Shown: positions 4,592 to 27,410 of the stretch, piece after piece
Numbering within the stretch: position 1 is the first letter of the stretch
Layout of the letters: each line of letters opens with the position of its first letter
Source: an uncultured Lachnospiraceae bacterium
GTDB lineage: Bacteria; Bacillota; Clostridia; Lachnospirales; Lachnospiraceae
Direction of reading: 5' to 3'
Assembly (NCBI GenBank): GCA_947626945.1
Contig: CANQUC010000001.1
Span: forward strand, 33,365 to 97,364
Length of the DNA stretch: 64,000 bases
Made by a program: the position numbers and the translations under genes
Notes under the pieces: model-generated
Databases searched by the model: none
What the model was told of the DNA's origin: nothing
Seen by the model: only the letters and a program-made list of their open reading frames with translations

Positions 4592-7150
4592 ATGCGAGGA
4601 AACATGAAAAAAATGACCGCGTTTATTGCGGCGGCGGTCATGATCCTGCTGGGTTGTCTGCAGGGAAACCTGGACGCGCTGACGAAAGGCGTGACGGCAA
4701 AAGCTGCCGGATCTGACTTAAACGGTCTGCTGGACAGGAATGAGCTGGCCGGATGGGCTGCCACAGACGGCAACAAGCTGCAGTGGCTGGAAGGCGGCGT
4801 TGTGGGCGGCGGAGACGCCGCGCCGGTTACCGTGACTAATCGGGATGATTTTATAAAGGCGGTCAGCGACGACACACCCCGGGTTGTAATCGTTTCGGGA
4901 CAGATCCAGGCCATGACCAGCGGCGGATCCGCCATTGACATCGGCAGCAACAAGACCATAGTGGGCGCCGATGAAAACGCGGCCTTAAACGGCGGCATCA
5001 ACATCAAAAACAAAAGCAACATCATCGTCAGCAATCTGGTGATGAAAGGGTGCCTGAAAGAGCCCAGGACCCCTGACGACGTGATCAATGTGGAGGGCAG
5101 GAACGCTCATCACATCTGGTTCAATCACCTGGATATTTCCGACGGCGGCGACGGCAATCTGGATATTAAGTCGGAGGCCAGCTATATTACCGTGTCCTGG
5201 TGTAAATTTTCCTATTCTACCAGCAGCCATGATCACCGGCTTTCCTGCCTGATCAGCTCCGGCGCGGGAGACCATGACGAGGACTACGGACATCTGAAAG
5301 TGACCTACCACCACAACTGGTTCGCGGACAACGTAAGAGAGCGGATGCCCCGGGTTATGTACGGCAGAGCTCATATATACAACAATTATTACACCTGCAA
5401 AAATGACCTGTACTGTATCGGCGTGGACTGCTACGCGGCGGTGCTTATTGAAAACAATTACTTCCAGAATGTGAACAATCCCCATGAATTTTCGTATCCT
5501 TATCCGGAGAATAAGGGCAATTCTCAGCCGGCCCATATTACTGCAAGGGGAAATCAGTATGACAATACTTCCGGAAAGAAAGAAACCGGAGACAAGCCCA
5601 ATGTGCCCGGCGCGGTGCAGCCCTTTGACCAGGCGCCCTATGAGTACTGGCTGGATGAGGCGGAAGATGTGCCCGCGCTGGTAACAGCAAACGCCGGACC
5701 CAGAAACGCGGATCCGGACAGATCTCCTGTACCCACGGCAACGCCCATGCCCAGCACGGAGCCTGGGGACAAGCCTGAGCCAAAACCCACTTTGGATCCC
5801 AGCCCTACGCCCAAGCCCGCGGCCACAAACGCCGCGCCCAAGCAGGTGACGGACAGCCAGCGGGGAACGGTATGGGAGTTCCAGGGACAAAATTCCGATA
5901 AGACCAACGGGCAGGTGACAGTGGAAAATCCCTTTGCCGGAATGGATCTTTCGGAGACGCCCTCTTATTCCGGCCGGTATCCTTCCTGGAAAAAAGGCGT
6001 GACCCTGACTTTCTGGGAATATGTGCCCTCCGACGTCAGCGCCGAGGGTGTGGCGCTTTCCTTCTCCGGTACTCACCAGGCGGTCAAGTCTCTGGACTGG
6101 ACTCTTCACTACGAGGGAGAGGAAGGATATGAAAACCGCTTTGAGGACAACGGCGGAACCTACAGCCTGATGCGGGAAGGCAACGTGCGCAGCGGACTGC
6201 AGATCAGCACCTTTGGCAGCATCGGATTTTCTGAGGACGACTGCGTATCCGGCTGGAACATCAATCCCTACTCAGGCGAATACGGCCTGCAGATGGATTT
6301 CCAGCAGAAAAATTATTATTATATTTTTGGAAACAAATCCGGCACAAAACATCCCCTTTACTCCGGCAGAGGAAAATGGCATTTTGTGGCCATGGTGATC
6401 CAGAACGACGGGATCGACACCTATGTGGACGGCACGAAGACAGAAAATACCCAGTACAACGTCTGGGGCGACACAAAGTTTACCATTGCGAAAAACGGCA
6501 TATATGTAGGCGGCCAGTCCTTTAACCGGGGTTACGGCTGGAAAGGGGCCTACCGGGAAAGCAATCCCTCCGCTGTCTACAGCCATGGCATGGATCTTCT
6601 GGATTTTCTGTCCCTGGACAATACGCAGCTGACCATTGGCGGCAAAGCGGGCCTGTGGGATACGCTGGCGATGAATGACTTTACCACGCCAAAGGGCGTC
6701 CGCATCGGTCAGGTAAGCGGTTATGGACGGATGCTTTCCCAGCAGGAGATCAAAAATCTGATGAACGGGACGGAGCCGGAGCCCTCCGAGGATGTAAAGC
6801 CCTCAGAGGATGTGAAACCCTCTGAAGACGTAAAACCCTCCGAGGACGTGAAACCCTCCGAGGACGTAAAGCCCTCCGAGGACGTGAAACCCTCCGAGGA
6901 CGTAAAGCCCTCCGAGGACGTGAAACCCTCCGAGGACGTGAGAGTTGCCGGCGACGCCGATCTGAACGGCAAGGTGGAAGTGGGAGACGCCATCGCGGTG
7001 CTGAAACATCTTGTGAAGCTGCAGGAGTTTACTTCCCGGCAGCTGAAAAACGCAAATGTACATCCTGACGTCCAGCCCGACCAGATCACGGTTCAGGACG
7101 CCATTGATATCCTGAAATATGTGGTAAAACTCATCGGTCAGCTTCCCTGA
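4592..7150 (+). CDS. Secreted PL1-family pectate lyase with LamG-like module, (PSEDVK)9 linker and C-terminal dockerin
   Basis: PL1 signatures 'HIWFNHLDISDGGDGNLD' and 'RMPRVMYGRAHIYNNYY'. Signal peptide with lipobox-like 'LLGC'. Pro/Thr linker. Dockerin repeats 'DADLNGKVEVGDAIAVLKHLVKL' and '...ITVQDAIDILKYVVKL'. Confidence 0.85.
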   Translation: MRGNMKKMTAFIAAAVMILLGCLQGNLDALTKGVTAKAAGSDLNGLLDRNELAGWAATDGNKLQWLEGGVVGGGDAAPVTVTNRDDFIKAVSDDTPRVVIVSGQIQAMTSGGSAIDIGSNKTIVGADENAALNGGINIKNKSNIIVSNLVMKGCLKEPRTPDDVINVEGRNAHHIWFNHLDISDGGDGNLDIKSEASYITVSWCKFSYSTSSHDHRLSCLISSGAGDHDEDYGHLKVTYHHNWFADNVRERMPRVMYGRAHIYNNYYTCKNDLYCIGVDCYAAVLIENNYFQNVNNPHEFSYPYPENKGNSQPAHITARGNQYDNTSGKKETGDKPNVPGAVQPFDQAPYEYWLDEAEDVPALVTANAGPRNADPDRSPVPTATPMPSTEPGDKPEPKPTLDPSPTPKPAATNAAPKQVTDSQRGTVWEFQGQNSDKTNGQVTVENPFAGMDLSETPSYSGRYPSWKKGVTLTFWEYVPSDVSAEGVALSFSGTHQAVKSLDWTLHYEGEEGYENRFEDNGGTYSLMREGNVRSGLQISTFGSIGFSEDDCVSGWNINPYSGEYGLQMDFQQKNYYYIFGNKSGTKHPLYSGRGKWHFVAMVIQNDGIDTYVDGTKTENTQYNVWGDTKFTIAKNGIYVGGQSFNRGYGWKGAYRESNPSAVYSHGMDLLDFLSLDNTQLTIGGKAGLWDTLAMNDFTTPKGVRIGQVSGYGRMLSQQEIKNLMNGTEPEPSEDVKPSEDVKPSEDVKPSEDVKPSEDVKPSEDVKPSEDVKPSEDVKPSEDVRVAGDADLNGKVEVGDAIAVLKHLVKLQEFTSRQLKNANVHPDVQPDQITVQDAIDILKYVVKLIGQLP
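6782..6943 (+). repeat. In-frame 18-bp tandem repeat x9 encoding PSEDVK
   Basis: ccc tcN gaR gaY gtR aaR repeated 9 times with only synonymous wobble variation (the last unit is PSEDVR). It lies between the LamG-like module and the dockerin. Confidence 0.95.
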
Positions 7151-10278: not shown

Positions 10279-10656
10279 ATGGCAAAACTGACAACAGCTG
10301 AAATGATCGAAGCGATCAAGGAAATGTCCGTACTGGAACTGAACGAACTGGTAAAAGCATGTGAGGAAGAGTTTGGCGTATCTGCGGCAGCAGGCGTTGT
10401 AGTTGCGGCAGGTGCCGGAGAGGGCGCGGCAGCCGCTGAGGAGAAGACAGAATTCAACGTAGAGCTGACAGAAGTAGGTCCCAACAAGGTAAAGGTCATC
10501 AAGGTTGTCCGTGAGATCACAGGCCTTGGTCTGAAAGAGGCCAAGGAAGTTGTTGACGGCGCTCCCAAGATGGTAAAAGAGGGCGTTGAAAAGGCTGAGG
10601 CCGAGGACATCAAGGCAAAGATCGAGGCGGAAGGCGCCAAGGTAACGCTGAAATAA
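10279..10656 (+). CDS. rplL: 50S ribosomal protein L7/L12
   Basis: ATG at 10279 after GGAGGAAAC. '[25 protein letters not shown]', Ala/Gly hinge, '[25 protein letters not shown]'. Confidence 0.95.
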
Positions 10657-10870: not shown

Positions 10871-12706
10871 ATGAAAAAGTTCCAGTTTGCACAGTCAATG
10901 GCCAAAAAAGCCCTTGCAGTGGGGCTGTCTGTTGCCATGACCGTGCCGATGTCCTTGACGTCTATTGGGGGTACAATCGTGCAGGCTGCTGATGATGACT
11001 TGCCTGTTCCGTTTTCGACCATTCAGGCCGGTATTACAGAAGGCAAGGCAGATAACGAAGCAAACGCGCCTGCTGTGGATGCTCTTACGGACGCTCCGTG
11101 GGCCGGCGGTGAAAAAAACGCCTGGACTCTGAAGGACACAGTGACCAACGAGCCTGTGACCGCCAACAACAGAACCACTCTGCAGGAGACAGACTCCGCG
11201 TTTGTTGTTGCCAATCCCTTTAAGGGCAAAACACAGCTCAGCGAAGACATAAGGGATGTTCTGACTGACGTGACGGATCCCGCAACCGGTAGTAAGATCG
11301 GACAAAAGCCCGTATGGACCCAGGGCGTGACCCTGACCTACTGGGTAAAGGCAAAGGATGCCAAGAACTCAGCAGTTCTCTCCTTTGTAGGAAATGATAT
11401 CCGTACATATCACAAGGATCAGCTTCAGTACTACCGCATCTGCTCTGAGTATGAAAAGGGCATGGAAAACGATCCCGACAGTCGTTTTTACATCCAGAAA
11501 GTAAAGGACGCCACTTTTGAAGGCAAGACGGTATATACCTTTGACGCCTGGTGGGAGAAGAACGGATACACCTCAAATACTCAGAAAAAGAATCATGTGC
11601 CTGAGTGGTGCTACTATGTTCCCGGTATAGAATGCAACGAGAGCGACGCCATCGACGCTTATATGTATATTGGCAAGATGAACGAGGACGGCACAGCCGC
11701 TGAAGCTCTGACTACCAGAAATACCGTTAAGGTGCCCAACGGTTTCTGCAAGGACGCAACCTACTACGGCGAACTGGACGTTGCCAAAGGCAGCCAGCTG
11801 AAGCAGGCCGACGTGGACGGATTCCTGCAGATTTCCGCGGACAACGAGCTGAAGTTCATGGAAGATACCGGCACCGAGTACAGCGTCAACAACAACCGGA
11901 AAGATTACGGCACAGACAAGACGCCCGGTATGCAGGTGTCCAACAATCTGAGCGTAATCGGCAACTTTACAAAACGTGACGCAGAGGATCCTGTTCTCAG
12001 CAACAGCGACTGGCACTTTGTTGCATATGTGATCACCAATGACAGCGTGACCGCTTATGTAGACGGAGAGGACATGGACGTAATGGATTACGATGTTAAA
12101 AATGCGGACGGTTCTCAGGGTCCTATGACATGGGCAGGAAAGTCCTTCAACGCAAGCGTTGCGCTGAATTCTCCTACAGGAGCCGCTCACAGCGCTGGCT
12201 CTGCCACCTATCCGGGTTACTATGATTCCAACTGCAACGGCAAGCTTCTGATGGATTGGCTGATCCAGGATCAGGTTGAATTAAAGATCGGCGGCGCCAG
12301 CGTGAAGATGGATCTGAACGCGGTAAACAATGGCGCGGCAACAAAAGAGCTTGGTTACTGGCCCAACGATACAGTGGCAGGCACTCAGATCGCCAAGATC
12401 AATGTGTATGACACGCCGCTGTCCGCTGCAAAGGTTCAGGATATCTACGCGGCCAAGGATCCCAAGGTTGCAGAAGAAAAGGTCGATGTGCAGTATGGCA
12501 ATGTGGACGGAGACGAAGAGGTAACGACAAACGACGCCATCGCAGTTCTGAGATCTCTTGTAAAGCTGACCACATTTGACGATGCCCAGACCACAGCTGC
12601 CGATGTAAACCAGGATGGAACCGTGGACGTAAACGACGCCATCACCATTCTGAAACATCTGGTGAAACTGATTCCGGAACTTCCTGTTCCGAAGCCTGCC
12701 GCTTAA
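10871..12706 (+). CDS. Secreted dockerin-containing protein with LamG/concanavalin-like module (no recognisable catalytic domain)
   Basis: Signal peptide ('...TIVQA/ADDD'). The module is collinear with the C-terminal half of the pectate lyase ('WTQGVTLTYWVK', 'DWHFVAYVITNDSVTAYVDGE'). Clear dockerin pair 'GNVDGDEEVTTNDAIAVLRSLVKL' and 'ADVNQDGTVDVNDAITILKHLVKL'. Confidence 0.8.
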   Translation: MKKFQFAQSMAKKALAVGLSVAMTVPMSLTSIGGTIVQAADDDLPVPFSTIQAGITEGKADNEANAPAVDALTDAPWAGGEKNAWTLKDTVTNEPVTANNRTTLQETDSAFVVANPFKGKTQLSEDIRDVLTDVTDPATGSKIGQKPVWTQGVTLTYWVKAKDAKNSAVLSFVGNDIRTYHKDQLQYYRICSEYEKGMENDPDSRFYIQKVKDATFEGKTVYTFDAWWEKNGYTSNTQKKNHVPEWCYYVPGIECNESDAIDAYMYIGKMNEDGTAAEALTTRNTVKVPNGFCKDATYYGELDVAKGSQLKQADVDGFLQISADNELKFMEDTGTEYSVNNNRKDYGTDKTPGMQVSNNLSVIGNFTKRDAEDPVLSNSDWHFVAYVITNDSVTAYVDGEDMDVMDYDVKNADGSQGPMTWAGKSFNASVALNSPTGAAHSAGSATYPGYYDSNCNGKLLMDWLIQDQVELKIGGASVKMDLNAVNNGAATKELGYWPNDTVAGTQIAKINVYDTPLSAAKVQDIYAAKDPKVAEEKVDVQYGNVDGDEEVTTNDAIAVLRSLVKLTTFDDAQTTAADVNQDGTVDVNDAITILKHLVKLIPELPVPKPAA

Positions 12707-15435: not shown

Positions 15436-16071
15436 ATGAAGATCGCATTGATCAATGAAAACAGCCAGGCGGCTAAAAACGCCCAGATTGAGGCGGTTCT
15501 GAAAAAAGTGGCGGAGCCCCTGGGACATCAGGTGATGAATTACGGAATGTACAGTCCGGAGGATCCGGCTCAGCTGACCTATGTGCAGATCGGAATCCTG
15601 GCGGCGGTGCTGCTGAATTCCAAAGCGGCGGATTATGTGGTGACCGGATGCGGCACCGGAGAGGGCGCCATGCTTGCATGCAACGCGTTCCCGGGGGTGC
15701 TTTGCGGACATATCGTTGATCCGTCGGACGCTTATCTGTTTGCCCAGATCAACGACGGCAACGCAATTGCACTTCCCTTTGCCAAAGGATTTGGATGGGG
15801 TGCGGAGCTGAATCTGGAATATATTTTTGAAAAGCTTTTTTCCTGTGAGGGCGGCCAGGGCTATCCCAGAGAGCGGGCTGTGCCGGAGCAGAGGAATAAA
15901 AAGATCCTGGATCAGGTAAAGCAGGTGACCTGCAGAAAGCTGACGGATATTTTGCGGGAGCTTCCGGCGGAGCTTGTACAGGGCGCTTTGGCGGGAGAAC
16001 GGTTCCGAACCCTGTTTTTTGAAAACTGCAAGGATCCGGAAATTGCGGAAACCGTAAACGGACTGCTGTAA
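15436..16071 (+). CDS. RpiB/LacA/LacB-family isomerase, DhuI-like (4-deoxy-L-threo-5-hexosulose-uronate isomerase candidate)
   Basis: 211 aa. '[21 protein letters not shown]' RpiB-type active-site region. The ~210-aa size class is the one found next to DhuD-type SDRs in Firmicutes. Confidence 0.65.
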
Positions 16072-16080
16072 GGGGGCTTA

Positions 16081-16235
16081 GTGTGAAAAATCACACAGAT
16101 GTGCTGATTGTTTCACAAAACGAAGTCCCTTCGTTTGGCTATTTGTGCCGGAGCGTCACAAATAGCACTGATGGCAGACGCGAACTGGAGGTTCGCGTCG
16201 CCCCGTCGCGTAAACGCTCCGGAATGGGGATTATT
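16081..16235 (+). repeat. Structured intergenic repeat, copy A (hairpin module + core), abutting the udp start codon
   Basis: Near-identical to the reverse complement of 27191-27326 and 27327-27410. Hairpins at 16082-16117, 16118-16136, 16138-16166 and 16177-16199. The 9-nt loop CCGGAGCGT (16148-16156) is complementary to ACGCTCCGG (16214-16222). Confidence 0.9.
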
Positions 16236-16994
16236 ATGAAACAGTATCATATTCAGTGCGATACAGGCGATGTGGGAAACTATGTGATTCTGCCGGGAGA
16301 TCCGGGACGGTGCCGTCAGATCGCAGAATATTTTGAACGGCCGGAAAAGATCTGTGAGAACCGGGAGTTTACCACATACACCGGCCGGCTGCTTGGAGAA
16401 CCGGTATCGGTTACTTCCACAGGCATTGGCGGACCCTCGGCGGTCATTGCCATGGAGGAGTTGAAAGCCATTGGCGCCCATACCTTTATTCGGGTAGGCA
16501 CCTGCGGCGGTATTGATATGAAAGTGAAAAGCGGTGACTGTGTCATTGCCATGAGCGCGGTGCGCCATGAGGGCACCAGCCGGGAATACGCGCCTATAGA
16601 ATATCCTGCCACCTCTGACTACCAAGTGCTCACGGCGCTTACGGCGGCGGCTGAGGATCTGGGGATTCCCTGGCACGCAGGCGTGGTGCAGTGCAAAGAT
16701 TCCTTTTACGGACAGCATGATCCGGAAAGAATGCCGGTCTTTCGGGAACTGCTGGATCGGTGGGAGGCCTGGAAACGGCTTCATGTGCTTGCCAGCGAAA
16801 TGGAGTCGGCGGCGCTCTTTACAGCGGCGGCGGCCCTTGGGGCGCGGAGCGGAGCGGTGTTTAACGTGGTCTGGAATCAGGAGCGAAAAGCGGCCGGATT
16901 TACGGAGCCGGACAATCACTCCACAGACAGAGGGATCCGGATCGCGGTAGAGGCCATCAAAAGGCTGATCCAAAAAGACAGACAGAATGGATAA
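16236..16994 (+). CDS. udp: Uridine phosphorylase (PNP/UDP-1 family)
   Basis: '[17 protein letters not shown]...[34 protein letters not shown]...EMESAALF' is collinear with Udp. Start set at ATG 16236; the listed ORF start 16083 translates the repeat element. Confidence 0.85.
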
Positions 16995-18737: not shown

Positions 18738-18918
18738 ATGTGGGAGTCCTTTCTAAACAACATCTTCAAACTACATTATATAGTTTTTAAAACCTTATGT
18801 AAAGTGTTTTTTTGAGCCGTTTTCATCTGGCCGGAGATTGACAGAAAAGGGGAATTCCATTATACTAAATGACAGTCGGAAAAAGACAGGCAATACAAGC
18901 AGAAAGGTAACCCGGTTT

Positions 18919-21282
18919 ATGAATTTACAGGGCATTTTAAACAAAGAACAGGAAGAAGCGGTGCTCCATGGAGAAGGGCCGCTTTTGATTTTGGCGGGCG
19001 CGGGCTCCGGAAAAACCCGGGTGCTTACATACCGGATCGCACATTTGATCGCGGATCGGGGCGTGTCCCCATGGAATATCCTTGCCATTACCTTTACCAA
19101 CAAAGCGGCCGGGGAAATGCGGGAGCGGGTAGATCAGCTGGCAGGCTTCGGCGCGGAGCAGGTGTGGGTCAGCACCTTTCACGCCACCTGCGTGCGGATC
19201 CTTCGGCGGCACATCGACTGCATTGGCTATCAGACCAATTTTACCATTTATGATACAGATGATTCCAAGTCTCTGATCAGGGACGTGTGCAGGCAGGTGG
19301 GGGTAGACACAAAGGTCTACAAAGAGCGAAGCCTTTTATCTGCCATTTCTGCCGCAAAAAATGAAATGATCACACCGGAGCAGTTTGCCCGGGACGCGGC
19401 AGGCGACTACGGACAGGAGCAGGTGGCAAAGGTTTATCAGGCTTATCAGCAGCAGCTTTATCGGAACAATGCGCTGGATTTTGATGATCTGCTGCAAAAA
19501 ACGGTGGAGCTGTTTTCACGGACGCCGGAGGTTCTTGCCTATTATCAGGAACGGTTCCGGTATATTCTGGTGGATGAATATCAGGACACCAATACCGTGC
19601 AGTTTGAATTTGTGCGTCTGCTGGCAGACCGGTACCGCAATCTGTGCGTGGTGGGGGATGACGATCAGTCCATTTACAAGTTCAGGGGAGCCAACATTGA
19701 AAACATATTGAGCTTTGAACGGCATTATCCTGACGCAAAGGTGATCAAGCTGGAGCAAAATTACCGGTCCACCGGCAATATTCTGAAGGCTGCCAACGGG
19801 GTGATTTCCAATAACAGAGGCCGGAAAGAAAAGCGTCTGTGGACAGAAGCGGAGGAGGGAAAAAAAATTCCGCTGCTGCAGTTTGATTCCGCGTACCAGG
19901 AGGCGGAATATATTGTAGGAGATATCCGAAGCAAAGTGCGGAGCGGGTTTTATGAATACAGGGATTTTGCCATCCTGTACCGCACCAACGCTCAGTCCCG
20001 CCTGTTTGAGGAAAAGCTTCTGCTGTCCGGCACGCCTTACAAGATCATTGGCGGCGTAAACTTTTACGCGAGAAAAGAGATCAAGGATCTGCTGGCCTAT
20101 TTAAAGACCGTTGACAACGGTCAGGACGATCTGGCGGTAAAGCGGATCATCAACGTGCCCCGGCGGGGGATCGGCAATACCACCATCGCCCGGATAGAGG
20201 AATATGCCGGAGAAAGGGGAATCAGTTTTTATGAGGGACTTTTGCAGGCAGAGAACATTCCCGGGATCTCCAGAGCGCAAAACAGTATCCGGTCTTTTGT
20301 AAAGCCCATTCAGGACGCCCGCGCCAAAGCGGACAGCTGTTCCGTAAAGGAGCTTTTGGAGAAGCTGATTGAGGATTCCGGTTATGTGCGGGAGCTGGAG
20401 GAAGCGGACACCGATGAGGCGAAAAACCGCATGGAAAATATCGACGAACTGTTCAGTAAGATCGCAGGTTATGAGGAAAGCGCCCAGGAACCCTCTCTGA
20501 GCGGATTTTTGCAGGAGGTGGCTCTGGTAGCCGATGTGGACAGCCTGGAAAATGATCAGAATTATGTGGTGCTGATGACCCTGCACAGCGCAAAGGGCCT
20601 GGAGTTTCCAAACGTCTATCTTACCGGTATGGAAGAAGGCGTTTTCCCAAGCTATCTGTCCTTTGCCATGGAAGATCCGGCGGATCTGGAGGAAGAACGG
20701 CGGCTTTGCTATGTAGGCATTACCAGAGCGAAAAGGGAGCTGACTCTGACCTGGGCAAAAATGCGGATGCAGCGGGGCGAGACCCAGTACAGCATGCCCT
20801 CCCGGTTTTTGCGGGAGGTGCCAAAAGAAGTGCTGGACGGCGCCGCTGGAGAGCGGGGAGACCAAAAGCGTTTGGAGGGATTCCTGGCGGCCGGAGGTTT
20901 TGGCCAGCCGGCAGTGTTTGGACAGACGGGCAGAACCGGCCAGTCGGGAGCTGCCGGGCAGACAGGAAGAACCGGTTTTTCGGGTGTTTCCGGGCAGACG
21001 GGCAGAACCGGCCAGTCGGGAGCTGCCGGGCAGACAGGCAGGAACAGCCGGTTCCAGGGAAAGTATCAGTCTGCCATTATGACAGGAAAGCAGATGCAGG
21101 TCAACAAGGCGGAGGGCCTGTCCTACGGCGTAGGAGACCGGGTGAGCCATGTGAAATTCGGACAGGGAACGGTAATGAACATTGCCGACGGCGGAAAAGA
21201 CTATGAGGTTCAGGTAAACTTTGACAGCTGCGGCGTTAAAAAAATGTTTGCCTCTTTTGCGAAACTGAAAAAATGTCCGTGA
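18919..21282 (+). CDS. pcrA: ATP-dependent DNA helicase PcrA (UvrD family)
   Basis: Start at ATG 18919 ('MNLQGILNKEQEEAV...LAGAGSGKT'). 'VDEYQDTN', 'TLHSAKGLEFP', 'YVGITRAK'. C-terminal Tudor-like 'GDRVSHVKFGQGTV'. Confidence 0.93.
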   Translation: MNLQGILNKEQEEAVLHGEGPLLILAGAGSGKTRVLTYRIAHLIADRGVSPWNILAITFTNKAAGEMRERVDQLAGFGAEQVWVSTFHATCVRILRRHIDCIGYQTNFTIYDTDDSKSLIRDVCRQVGVDTKVYKERSLLSAISAAKNEMITPEQFARDAAGDYGQEQVAKVYQAYQQQLYRNNALDFDDLLQKTVELFSRTPEVLAYYQERFRYILVDEYQDTNTVQFEFVRLLADRYRNLCVVGDDDQSIYKFRGANIENILSFERHYPDAKVIKLEQNYRSTGNILKAANGVISNNRGRKEKRLWTEAEEGKKIPLLQFDSAYQEAEYIVGDIRSKVRSGFYEYRDFAILYRTNAQSRLFEEKLLLSGTPYKIIGGVNFYARKEIKDLLAYLKTVDNGQDDLAVKRIINVPRRGIGNTTIARIEEYAGERGISFYEGLLQAENIPGISRAQNSIRSFVKPIQDARAKADSCSVKELLEKLIEDSGYVRELEEADTDEAKNRMENIDELFSKIAGYEESAQEPSLSGFLQEVALVADVDSLENDQNYVVLMTLHSAKGLEFPNVYLTGMEEGVFPSYLSFAMEDPADLEEERRLCYVGITRAKRELTLTWAKMRMQRGETQYSMPSRFLREVPKEVLDGAAGERGDQKRLEGFLAAGGFGQPAVFGQTGRTGQSGAAGQTGRTGFSGVSGQTGRTGQSGAAGQTGRNSRFQGKYQSAIMTGKQMQVNKAEGLSYGVGDRVSHVKFGQGTVMNIADGGKDYEVQVNFDSCGVKKMFASFAKLKKCP
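20920..21038 (+). repeat. In-frame 72-bp (2 x 36-bp) tandem duplication encoding Gly-rich GQTGRTGQSGAA units in the PcrA linker
   Basis: ggRcagacgggcagaaccggccagtcgggagctgccgggcagacagg occurs at 20920 and again at 20992. Confidence 0.9.
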
Positions 21283-26314: not shown

Positions 26315-27190
26315 TCAGGAAAAGTCCTCTTTCAGACGCTCCAGCATCCGCCGGGCCATTGGCGTAAAGGTCTGGTATTTTTTCCAGACCAGGTAGATCC
26401 TGGTTTCCAGCCTTGGGGACAGGGGCCGGAATACCAGCCCGCTGCCGGGTTCTGTGTTGATCAGCCGGTCAAAGGTCAGAAGATATCCCAGTCCCTCCTT
26501 TACAAAAAGAGAACCGTTGTATGGCAGCCTGAAAGAGCCCTCCAGGCGAAGCCGGGACATAAGGCTGCCGCACCAGCGGGGCAGGTCTTTGCGCCAGGCC
26601 TGTTCCGAGCAAAACAGCGGAAGCCCGGTCAGATCCTCGGCACAGACGGCCTCTTTTTTTGCAAGCCCACAGTGGGCAGGCATGACCACGCCCCAGGTGT
26701 CGGCTTCCGGAAAACAGAGGCATTCATATCTGGAGGTGTCGGGATCTTCCGCCAATACCGCAAAGTCCAGAATGCCTCTGTCAAGTTTTTCAAGAACCTG
26801 CTCGGTGTCTCCGCTGGTAATGTGATACCGCAGTCCCGGACAGGACTGTTTCAGGTCGCTGACCGCCTGGGCCAGGAAGCGGATCTGATAGGACTCCGCA
26901 AGCCCGAAATAGAGTTCTCCCTCTGTGATATCATCCAGAGAGATAAATTCTCCCATGATCTTATCTGCCATTGCCACCAGGTCTTCCGCCCGTTTGCGCA
27001 GCAGCACGCCCTCCTCTGTCAGAGTGATGCTGAAGCTGTGACGGACAAACAGCTTTTTCCCAAGCTCATTTTCCAGCGCCTGCATTTGTTTGGAAAGAGC
27101 CGGCTGGGTAATATGCAGGTTTTCCGCTGCCCGGGTGATATTTTCCTCTCCGGCAACAGCCAGAAAATTGCGAAGTGTTCTGAGTTCCAT
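26315..27190 (-). CDS. LysR-family transcriptional regulator
   Basis: 'MELRTLRNFLAVAGEENITRAAENLHITQPALSKQMQALENELGKKLFVR' HTH. Start set at 27190; the listed 5' extension to 27283 translates the repeat element. Confidence 0.9.
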   Translation of the reverse strand: MELRTLRNFLAVAGEENITRAAENLHITQPALSKQMQALENELGKKLFVRHSFSITLTEEGVLLRKRAEDLVAMADKIMGEFISLDDITEGELYFGLAESYQIRFLAQAVSDLKQSCPGLRYHITSGDTEQVLEKLDRGILDFAVLAEDPDTSRYECLCFPEADTWGVVMPAHCGLAKKEAVCAEDLTGLPLFCSEQAWRKDLPRWCGSLMSRLRLEGSFRLPYNGSLFVKEGLGYLLTFDRLINTEPGSGLVFRPLSPRLETRIYLVWKKYQTFTPMARRMLERLKEDFS

Positions 27191-27326
27191 AATAATCCCT
27201 ATTCCGGAGCGTTTACGCGACGGGGCGACGCGAACCTCCAGTTCGCGTCTGCCATCAGTGCTATTTGTGACGCTCCGGCACAAATAGCCATGTGAAAAAT
27301 CAGCACATCGGTGTGATTTTTCACAC
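27191..27326 (-). repeat. Structured intergenic repeat, copy B (hairpin module + core), abutting the LysR start codon
   Basis: The reverse complement matches 16081-16235 almost base for base, minus the 19-nt extra hairpin of copy A. Perfect 12-bp inverted repeat tgtgaaaaatca/tgatttttcaca at 27291-27325. Confidence 0.9.
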
Positions 27327-27410
27327 TAATCCCCATTCCGGAGCGTTTACGCGACGGGGCGACGCGAACCTCCAGTTCGCGTCTGCCATCAGTGCTATTT
27401 GTGACATTCC
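27327..27410 (-). repeat. Structured intergenic repeat, copy C (core only), in tandem with copy B
   Basis: taatccccattccggagcgtttacgcgacggggcgacgcgaacctccagttcgcgtctgccatcagtgctatttgtgac repeats the core of copy B head-to-tail. Confidence 0.9.

Follow-up and report, generated by a model that had tools for sequence, protein, structure and literature searches.

In a 64,000-nt stretch of DNA from an uncultured Lachnospiraceae bacterium (GCA_947626945.1, CANQUC010000001.1:33,365-97,364, forward strand; hereafter the window), a structured element ends directly at the start codon of udp and recurs on the other strand before a LysR-type regulator gene. The best explanation for this element is that it belongs to an undescribed family of interspersed, non-coding repeats of ~134 nt found in gut Lachnospiraceae. 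Judged from the sequences, members of the family have clearly multiplied by copying and now occupy the sites of translation initiation of many unrelated genes, to which they supply a Shine-Dalgarno sequence (SD) 5-8 nt before the ATG. We lean towards viewing the element as a proliferating leader repeat that replaces the ribosome-binding site of the gene it precedes.

Three units of the element are present in the window, with landmarks in copy B2 that refer to hairpins H2 and H3 and to a loop partner described below:

16081-16235, + strand: copy A, a 134-nt unit plus a 19-nt hairpin insert, before udp.
27193-27326, - strand: copy B2, a full 134-nt unit (160.6 bits) before the LysR gene.
27327 to about 27404, - strand: copy B1, a 5′-truncated tandem unit (81.7 bits).
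27260-27289, - strand: H2 of copy B2, with its loop at 27270-27278; the H3 core lies at 27227-27249 and the loop partner at 27204-27212.

The original prediction, made from the letters of the window, was that 16081-16235 recurs almost base for base at 27191-27410 of the opposite strand, and coordinates, repeat-finder arms and diagnostic k-mers all agree with it. The repeat finder pairs 16136-16242 with 27184-27290 (107 nt, 98%), 16150-16241 with 27319-27410 (92 nt, 96%) and 16070-16112 with 27295-27337 (43 nt, 91%). Within the window, a 30-mer from the loop hairpin occurs at the two element loci only and a 23-mer from the next hairpin in the three units only; the same searches in shuffled sequence gave 0 matches. 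The udp ATG at 16236 and the LysR ATG at 27190-27188 both directly follow the shared ...ACGCTCCGGAAT(G/A)GGGATTATT, the SD of copy B2 being AAUAGGGA, and the N-termini that Udp and LysR would have from these codons are consistent with those of their homologues. Copy B1, which the repeat finder places at a spacing of 134 from B2, contains the 3′ strand of H2, then H3, H4 and the SD, and is joined to the native LysR promoter region at a GGAAT(A/G)TCAC microhomology. Both loci are co-oriented with their downstream gene, and the element is counted as ending 5 nt ahead of its ATG. A covariance model found no further diverged copies in the window (best extra match 12.8 bits, E = 0.22), and the 1.6-unit array of copy B was not reported by Tandem Repeats Finder.

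Copies elsewhere were collected by scanning species-representative genomes with one exact 23-mer, which returned three loci in two rabbit-gut Lachnospiraceae metagenome-assembled genomes (MAGs), and metagenomes with one 21-mer, which returned 40 loci from rabbit, woodrat-caecum and human gut samples. When identical and orthologous loci are collapsed, about 38 distinct element sites in rabbit, woodrat and human gut Lachnospiraceae remain, and the copies that a search of other genomes was expected to yield do therefore exist. At 29 of the 38 the element adjoins the start codon of a substantial open reading frame (ORF), or of one that runs off the contig, and its AAUGGRG is the gene's sole SD; the earlier claim of an element that reaches up to a start codon and provides the SD is upheld at these 29 sites. 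Eight further sites have the element 20-80 nt upstream of a co-oriented gene, with ATG (five) or ATA (three) in the start position, and the last is the tandem unit of the window. Several copies begin 0-13 nt after a co-oriented upstream ORF, so that the element is often intercistronic.

The genes that follow belong to more than 20 unrelated Pfam families with no common theme. They include Udp, LysR, flavodoxin, DnaJ-domain, GH94 and GH88 proteins, FtsX/MacB permeases, asparagine synthases (AsnB), deformylase (Def), a PyrK-like protein, an aminotransferase, alanine racemase (Alr), an ECF-S component, AddA, MutS2, BlaI, MATE, GT2 and RadA. A metabolite-specific riboswitch is excluded by this lack of relation among the downstream genes.

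Support for copying comes from comparison of orthologous loci with and without the element. The syntenic SDR-rpiB/lacAB-udp-PHP-TrpR locus lacks it in loci L050 and L051, where the spacers are 48 and 78 nt and the native ribosome-binding sites read GGAGGTGCTTT-ATG and GAGGAGGTATTTT-ATG, respectively. These sites lie at the same place as the SD-like 5′ flank of copy A, which is probably the original ribosome-binding site of udp. In L045 a diverged copy occupies the same udp locus, with its 5′ junction offset by 12 nt and an H3 of another sub-type. LysR orthologues in L047 and L048 have the same promoter as the window gene (TTATAATT.ATATCATGATATTC...GGAATATCA), followed by a native SD and ATG and no element; the window locus, to which the truncated unit has been joined, has lost the native SD. 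Copies at non-orthologous sites also resemble one another by source: H3 identity is 92% within a sample versus 70% between samples, 'within sample' being only a proxy for 'within genome' because the samples are metagenomes. A sample's own H3 sub-type is carried by 3/3 window units, 8/11 copies of ERZ808040 and 3/4 copies of ERZ779621, the other three ERZ808040 copies deviating by single substitutions or a deletion junction. Tandem arrays are common, including some whose units have unlike interiors and the same junction, and so are deletions between short internal repeats.

Although 11 kb separate them, the two element loci of the window are inverted repeats of each other over 107 nt (98%). If they recombined homologously, the 16.2-27.2 kb segment would be inverted and the udp and LysR upstream regions exchanged, with coding sequence left untouched; from synteny with L045, L050 and L051, the window is in the uninverted state.

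The junctions of the element have a characteristic form. In most full copies an SD-like word ending in TA is followed by GUGUGA, the first bases of hairpin H1, which look like a start codon that overlaps with a stop. TA closes the 5′ flank of 17/22 copies (mostly TTA, ATA or GTA), and the start-like position is GUG, with ATG in L010 and L045 and UUG in four variants. The flank is far more variable than the 3′ end; it agrees with the 3′ end of its own copy at 7.1/12 positions and with the 3′ ends of other copies at 6.0/12 (permutation p = 0.00015), and whenever it is joined to NN-ATG a normal ribosome-binding site results. In L020/L035 (one orthologous locus), L024, L038 and L045 the UGA of GUGUGA serves as the stop of the upstream ORF, in an ATGA-overlap geometry. 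These features fit integration at a short core common to the element junction and natural ribosome-binding sites, in which case the target would have contributed the 5′ site and the element the 3′ site. A simple staggered-cut duplication does not appear to fit the pattern. GC skew is positive across the whole window and the two loci are oppositely oriented, each along its gene, which indicates, for these two loci, that orientation follows the gene and not the replication fork.

Some further junction-like sequences are recorded here. In L022 (- strand, ~7281 of the reverse complement) an ordinary gene has AAGGAGGATTAGT-ATG, identical to the element consensus junction, so that native sites already resemble the presumed target. 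At L002:5920-5960 a membrane-protein gene starts with ATGGAGGTTTAAT-GTG-AAAAATCACAC..., giving MKNHT...; this start consists of an SD-like flank and the first 14 nt of the element, nothing more, and is either an element remnant now serving the gene or the type of gene start that gave the element its 5′ end. A tandem array at L027:5959-6198 has three units of unlike interior joined by the same ...ATGGRKGATT|GTGTGA or GATTGA junction. Several ERZ808040 copies (L027:5959-6198, L027:2400-2442 and L032:12380-12400) have a GCCGCC-(C/A)(A/T)AA-GGCGGC hairpin directly upstream of the ATGGAG junction.

The features of copy A, including the flank discussed above, are as follows:

16072-16080, + strand: SD-like 5′ flank, GGGGGCUUA, directly after the TAA of an rpiB/lacAB-like gene.
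16081-16117, + strand: H1, a GUGUGAAAAAUCA / UGAUUGUUUCACA hairpin, with compensatory pairs in helices 1 and 3.
16118-16136, + strand: optional hairpin, AAACGAAG UCC CUUCGUUU, a 19-nt insert not in copy B.
16137-16166, + strand: H2, a 10-bp stem with a 9-nt loop, CCGGAGCGU, at 16148-16156; three stem pairs covary, in 9-11/23 sequences.
16173-16202, + strand: H3, GGC-A-GACGCGAAC UGGAG GUUCGCGUC-GCC, with a bulged A and a lineage-specific stem sequence.
16203-16222, + strand: H4, CCG-UC-GCG-UAAA-CGC-UC-CGG, whose 3′ strand ACGCUCCGG (16214-16222) also pairs with the H2 loop.
16223-16235, + strand: 3′ end, AAUGGGGA (the only SD for udp) plus the spacer UUAUU; the ATG is at 16236.

The structure was examined in an alignment of 23 full copies with a consensus fold from RNAalifold, diverged units being treated through the covariance model. 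In the consensus, H1 is GUGUGAAAAAUCA...UGAUUUUUCACAC, the H2-H3 linker YUGAU is conserved, H3 is GGC-A-GACGC....GCGUC-GCC, and the 3′ end consists of ACGCUCCGG, AAUGGRG (the SD), AUUA, two variable bases and ATG. All four hairpins listed in the original prediction are present, but the 19-nt hairpin is not specific to copy A as had been stated: L001 has it too, and L041 has another extra hairpin at the same position. H4 is a fifth pairing beyond that list and has its 3′ strand in common with the pseudoknot discussed below.

Covariation gives strong support for the fold. With the pseudoknot scored instead of H4, pairing extends to 97.8% of cells and both sides have changed in 12 pairs, a result matched by 0/500 shuffles; the covariation analysis that had been suggested for the element is therefore clearly positive. 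In a control with slid partners, pairing falls to 30-50%. G-U occurs in 16 pairs versus A-C in five, and this excess argues for the sense strand as the one in which the structure was selected, be it in RNA or in single-stranded DNA of that sense. Folding energy alone cannot tell the strand, because the opposite strand also folds better than shuffles (z = -6.3, compared with z = -5.6 and -4.3 for the copies).

The H2 loop had been noted as perfectly complementary to a segment shortly before the ATG, and this complementarity (CCGGAGCGT versus ACGCTCCGG) is indeed present. The loop has its perfect complement in ACGCUCCGG, the 3′ strand of H4, and these 9 nt next to the SD are contested by the loop and the H4 5′ strand. 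Four sub-families differ in all three strands:

Main type: H2 loop CCGGAGCGU, partner ACGCUCCGG, H4 CCG-UC-GCG-UAAA-CGC-UC-CGG.
L007:2410-2543: H2 loop UCAGAGC, partner GCUCUGA, H4 UCA-UC-GCAG-UAAA-CUGC-UC-UGA.
L022:5790-5882: H2 loop UCUGCGCGGC, partner GCCGCGCAGA, H4 UGCGC...GCGCA.
L031:11914-12071: H2 loop CGGAAGCGU, partner ACGCUUCGG, H4 GCGUUC...GAACGC.

Joint covariation of the H2 loop, the H4 5′ strand and the shared partner across these sub-families is expected only if both pairings matter, and a pseudoknot/hairpin alternative is thus indicated. The question of whether the complementarity reflects a pseudoknot or a mutually exclusive pairing can be answered with both: a pseudoknot is possible, and the variants and their covariation show it to be exclusive with H4. 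In copy A the computed energies are -5.8 kcal/mol for H4 and -16.9 kcal/mol for the loop duplex; over all classes the duplex (-10 to -20 kcal/mol) is stronger than H4 (-5 to -8 kcal/mol). Because the duplex energies exceed those of H4 in every class, the pseudoknot looks like the stable state and H4 like a local hairpin that is favored kinetically. Neither predicted state sequesters the SD, which is 3 nt away from both alternative helices. No trans partner carrying ACGCUCCGG, and no antisense partner, was found elsewhere in the window.

We also note a short, diverged derivative before a U32-type peptidase gene in L015 (- strand, about 10290-10400 of the reverse complement). It reads ATGGAGAGTA-ATGTGAAAAATC..., followed by a AAACGAAC..GTTCGTTT hairpin, an H2 remnant and ATGGAGGATTATT-ATG; both junctions are kept, and H3, H4 and the pseudoknot are missing.

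No sigma-70-like promoter was found on the sense strand inside the element. A terminator scan gave two matches, one to the optional hairpin (16118-16136) and one at the SD (16217-16229), neither of them in the conserved core, and the element thus appears to have no convincing terminator.

How might such a repeat spread and act? We propose that it is multiplied by a duplicative process that recognizes SD-spacer-start sequences, with copying through recombination at the short common core or through a template-dependent copy, and that it is tolerated because the ribosome-binding site it displaces is restored. As RNA it would be part of a 5′ leader or an intercistronic region. Given the intercistronic position and the lack of a promoter and of a convincing terminator, the predicted pseudoknot/H4 switch beside the new SD probably tunes the efficiency of initiation there. 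This effect may depend on ribosomes loading at, or terminating on, the 5′ GUG-UGA. If the loop/partner/H4 alternative does control initiation, dozens of unrelated genes in abundant gut commensals would be under a common translational input. A more far-reaching version of this idea, which we put forward only tentatively, is a new non-autonomous mobile element that homes to SD-spacer-start sequences and inserts between SD and start, bringing a replacement SD and a self-contained switch. Recognition of its targets would perhaps involve an RNA intermediate or the short core, and arbitrary genes would have their translation rewired by what would in effect be a mobile riboregulator.

Several observations weigh against a proliferating leader repeat. 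The element lacks terminal inverted repeats, and its flanking direct repeat is imperfect, with an exact match in just L036 (14 nt) and L002 (8 nt); no known transposition chemistry fits. No transposase, recombinase or reverse transcriptase is linked to it at the loci collected, and no recent insertion between near-identical strains was seen among them. Both members of the orthologous pairs L005/L010 (flanks 92% identical) and window/L045 have retained the element, which is thus capable of lasting persistence, like a regulator under selection. Mobility alone hardly accounts for the three-way covariation, for which an RNA switch is the better explanation; at the same time, with the SD unsequestered in both states, translational regulation is not evident from the structure. 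Besides the proxy nature of the within-sample comparison, there is a sampling effect: the 21-mer used for the metagenomes is located inside H4, so that ascertainment in part explains why H4 is invariant and why copies retaining the 3′ end seem to be in excess.

Some of these points favor a dedicated cis-regulatory leader RNA, which we consider possible, although distinctly less so than a proliferating leader repeat. The element would then place many genes under one translational control as a riboregulator to which a protein, a small RNA or some general signal binds; the hairpin/pseudoknot would be its functional core, resembling that of repZ/repA, and its spread would be secondary. Compensatory changes that keep the structure, conserved unpaired junctions, the joint covariation of loop, H4 5′ strand and partner, the G-U excess on the sense strand and the position of the partner 3 nt from the SD are all in accord with this reading, as are retention at the orthologous loci (L005/L010; window/L045), optional hairpins at fixed junctions, as in riboswitch families, and the requirement for such a pseudoknot for RepZ in IncI1 and IncB/O plasmids (PMC8053102). 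However, no function unites the downstream genes, the element is missing from some orthologous loci, and many copies are tandem, truncated or internally deleted. The stems are near-identical within a sample and unlike between samples, the opposite of what riboswitch copies in a genome show. The SD is in neither of the alternative helices, an upstream ORF through which coupling could act has no conserved length or stop, and no Rfam family matches. The suggestion that the element is either a mobile repeat similar to miniature inverted-repeat transposable elements (MITEs) or REP sequences or a cis-regulatory RNA is supported as such, with two narrower forms removed. A strict MITE is one: the 5′ end, GTGTGAAAAATCAC, has no similarity to TAATCTCCATTCCGG, the reverse complement of the 3′ end, even though the element is small, non-coding, multicopy and of differing occupancy in related genomes, as MITEs are. 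A metabolite riboswitch is the other: there is a structured, covarying core, but neither a coherent gene set nor an SD-sequestering or terminator platform.

It is improbable, in our estimation, that the repeat derives by deletion from a larger mobile element or represents the terminal part of one, be this a palindrome-associated element of the IS200/IS605 type, mobilized in trans in single-stranded DNA form, or an insertion sequence (IS) or integrative element of which the repeat is the end. The lack of terminal inverted repeats, the hairpins near both ends (H1 at the 5′ end, and H4 at a distance of 11 nt from the 3′ end), the TA that ends the flank in 17/22 copies and the ..ATGGRKGATT|GTGTGA junction shared by units with unlike interiors would suit such an origin, and G-T pairs are tolerated in single-stranded DNA as well. 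On the other hand, in about 400 kb of loci neither a longer element with these ends nor an adjoining transposase was seen, the flanking ORFs having not been systematically screened, and plasmid and phage collections gave no match. Orientation follows the gene rather than the replication fork by GC skew at the two loci, and these IS families do not show a strict start-codon placement. To our knowledge, a third covarying strand likewise has no role in the known structure of IS200/IS605 ends. We give very little credence to a coding function, either as a leader peptide or as the N-terminal extension that gene callers annotate. The 5′ end does open a GTG, ATG or TTG frame after an SD-like word in nearly every copy, this frame enters the downstream gene in 4/25 copies, as in Udp, and a 58-aa ORF from another copy is present in the protein collection. 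But indels of 1, 8 and 19 nt break the frame between copies, and the upstream ORF has no preferred end, ranging from 7 to >600 codons with its stop anywhere from 114 nt before the ATG to >1700 nt after it. Together the frame-breaking indels and the non-conserved stop exclude coding, in agreement with the lack of coding capacity claimed earlier. Substitutions track base pairing, not codons, the homologues of Udp and LysR start at the downstream ATG, and a protein search with the 51-aa translation matched only that one 58-aa ORF.

The element affects gene annotation. Udp is called as a 303-aa protein from the GTG at 16083 (P0001; 16083-16994), its true start being the ATG at 16236, which gives 252 aa; the LysR ORF is open to a like over-extension, from the TTG at 27283. 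An exact-protein look-up of the Udp and LysR of the window returned no record. A covariance model of the family would correct gene starts in many Lachnospiraceae MAGs.

The element matched no known family in the database searches. At gathering thresholds, Rfam 15 found only the ribosomal protein L10 leader (RF00557, 9501-9633, 66.6 bits) in the whole window. E-value scans of the two loci gave chance matches only (E of 3 or more), and nine further loci gave tRNAs only; the Rfam comparison proposed at the outset thus assigns the element to no family. There was no blastn match to plasmid and phage collections, two viral-contig scans returned nothing, and no tRNA or tmRNA relation of the kind a SINE-like origin would leave was found. 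Four candidate identities were rejected. An integron attC site does not agree with a 3′ end of GGAGATTA-NN without GTTRRRY, nor with copies dispersed in housekeeping synteny in both orientations. A group II intron, considered for the GUGUG 5′ end, would be far larger, and neither a domain V-like hairpin nor an Rfam match was found. A CsrA site, considered for the GGA in the H2 loop, and SD/anti-SD mimicry by the loop and its partner were both set aside on variant loops such as UCUGCGCGGC, which lack GGA and depart from the mimicry while complementarity is kept.

Other repeats also occur in the window. Those at 6744-6974, 6982-7133 and 12529-12671 include an 18-nt in-frame tandem in nine overlapping copies (GAGGA(C/T)GT(A/G)AA(A/G)CCCTC(C/A/T)-like), and adjoining 41-nt repeats (GACGCCATCG...CTGAAACATCT...) resemble paired dockerin-type segments; the two kinds of repeat suggest secreted or cell-surface fiber-degrading proteins. 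A 36-nt coding repeat at 20909-21041 (three copies) lies inside an 814-aa ORF at 18838-21282.

Comparison with known systems brings out both parallels and differences. IS200/IS605 PATEs and REP/RAYT systems, like the element, are non-autonomous, lack terminal inverted repeats, have hairpins near their ends and depend on structure in one strand. They insert 3′ of a fixed 4-5-nt target, with a replication-strand bias and regardless of genes, whereas the Lachnospiraceae element has a set position relative to start codons and is oriented along its gene even where this runs against replication. The synthetic bicistronic design reportedly described by Mutalik et al. in 2013 has the same layout, with a first SD, a short upstream cistron and a second SD before the gene start; its engineered leader cistron stops on the gene start, unlike the variable stop of the element.

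Among interspersed repeats of Firmicutes, bcr1 of the Bacillus cereus group and the pneumococcal BOX and RUP are ~100-155 bp long, co-transcribed with their neighbors and variable in occupancy between strains, and compensatory changes keep the RNA fold of bcr1 (PMC3184786). In contrast to the Lachnospiraceae element, bcr1 has 5-bp target duplications and MITE-like ends, and BOX is modular (A-B-C). We know of no case in which bcr1, BOX or RUP is placed at start codons or supplies the SD.

For mechanism, the nearest analogue would be the RepZ pseudoknot of IncI1/IncB plasmids, though the leader ORF is not conserved here. In IncI1 and IncB/O plasmids the pseudoknot is essential for RepZ translation (PMC8053102). 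As in the element, an upstream loop of repZ/repA in IncI-alpha, IncB and IncL/M pairs with a segment just 5′ of the SD that a local hairpin otherwise holds, and ahead of it there is a leader ORF that has an SD of its own. The plasmid systems differ in being a single locus per plasmid, with a leader stop fixed near the target start, a sequestered SD and an antisense RNA that acts on the loop; the element has a non-conserved leader ORF and an SD outside the hairpin, and is repeated before many genes. The details of pseudoknot activation in these plasmids are reportedly given by Asano & Mizobuchi (1998) and Praszkier & Pittard (2002).

The closest described kind of sequence appears, by analogy, to be REP2 of Neisseria, together with IR-A of Borrelia. 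REP2 is 120-150 bp long, occurs in about 25 copies per genome and has internal inverted repeats and a predicted RNA fold; it lies directly upstream of unrelated ORFs, to which it brings a promoter as well as a ribosome-binding site and initiation codon, the genes thus being fused to the translational start of the repeat (PMC3184786). Similar IR-A and IR-B sequences are found on Borrelia plasmids, and the origin and mode of proliferation of REP2 are unexplained (PMC3184786). The Lachnospiraceae element, which we liken to REP2 by description only, is similar in size, in the lack of terminal inverted repeats, in being folded and in placing a ribosome-binding site before unrelated ORFs. It differs in having no promoter, in lying often inside operons and in belonging to another phylum, and also in its four hairpins, covariation-supported pseudoknot alternative, SD-plus-start-like 5′ junction and tandem arrays. 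The spread of start-fused ribosome-binding-site repeats such as REP2 has never been explained so far; since the Lachnospiraceae family offers orthologous sites both with and without the repeat, derivatives that are tandem or deleted, and a covarying structure, the precise copying of a leader onto gene starts becomes testable there.

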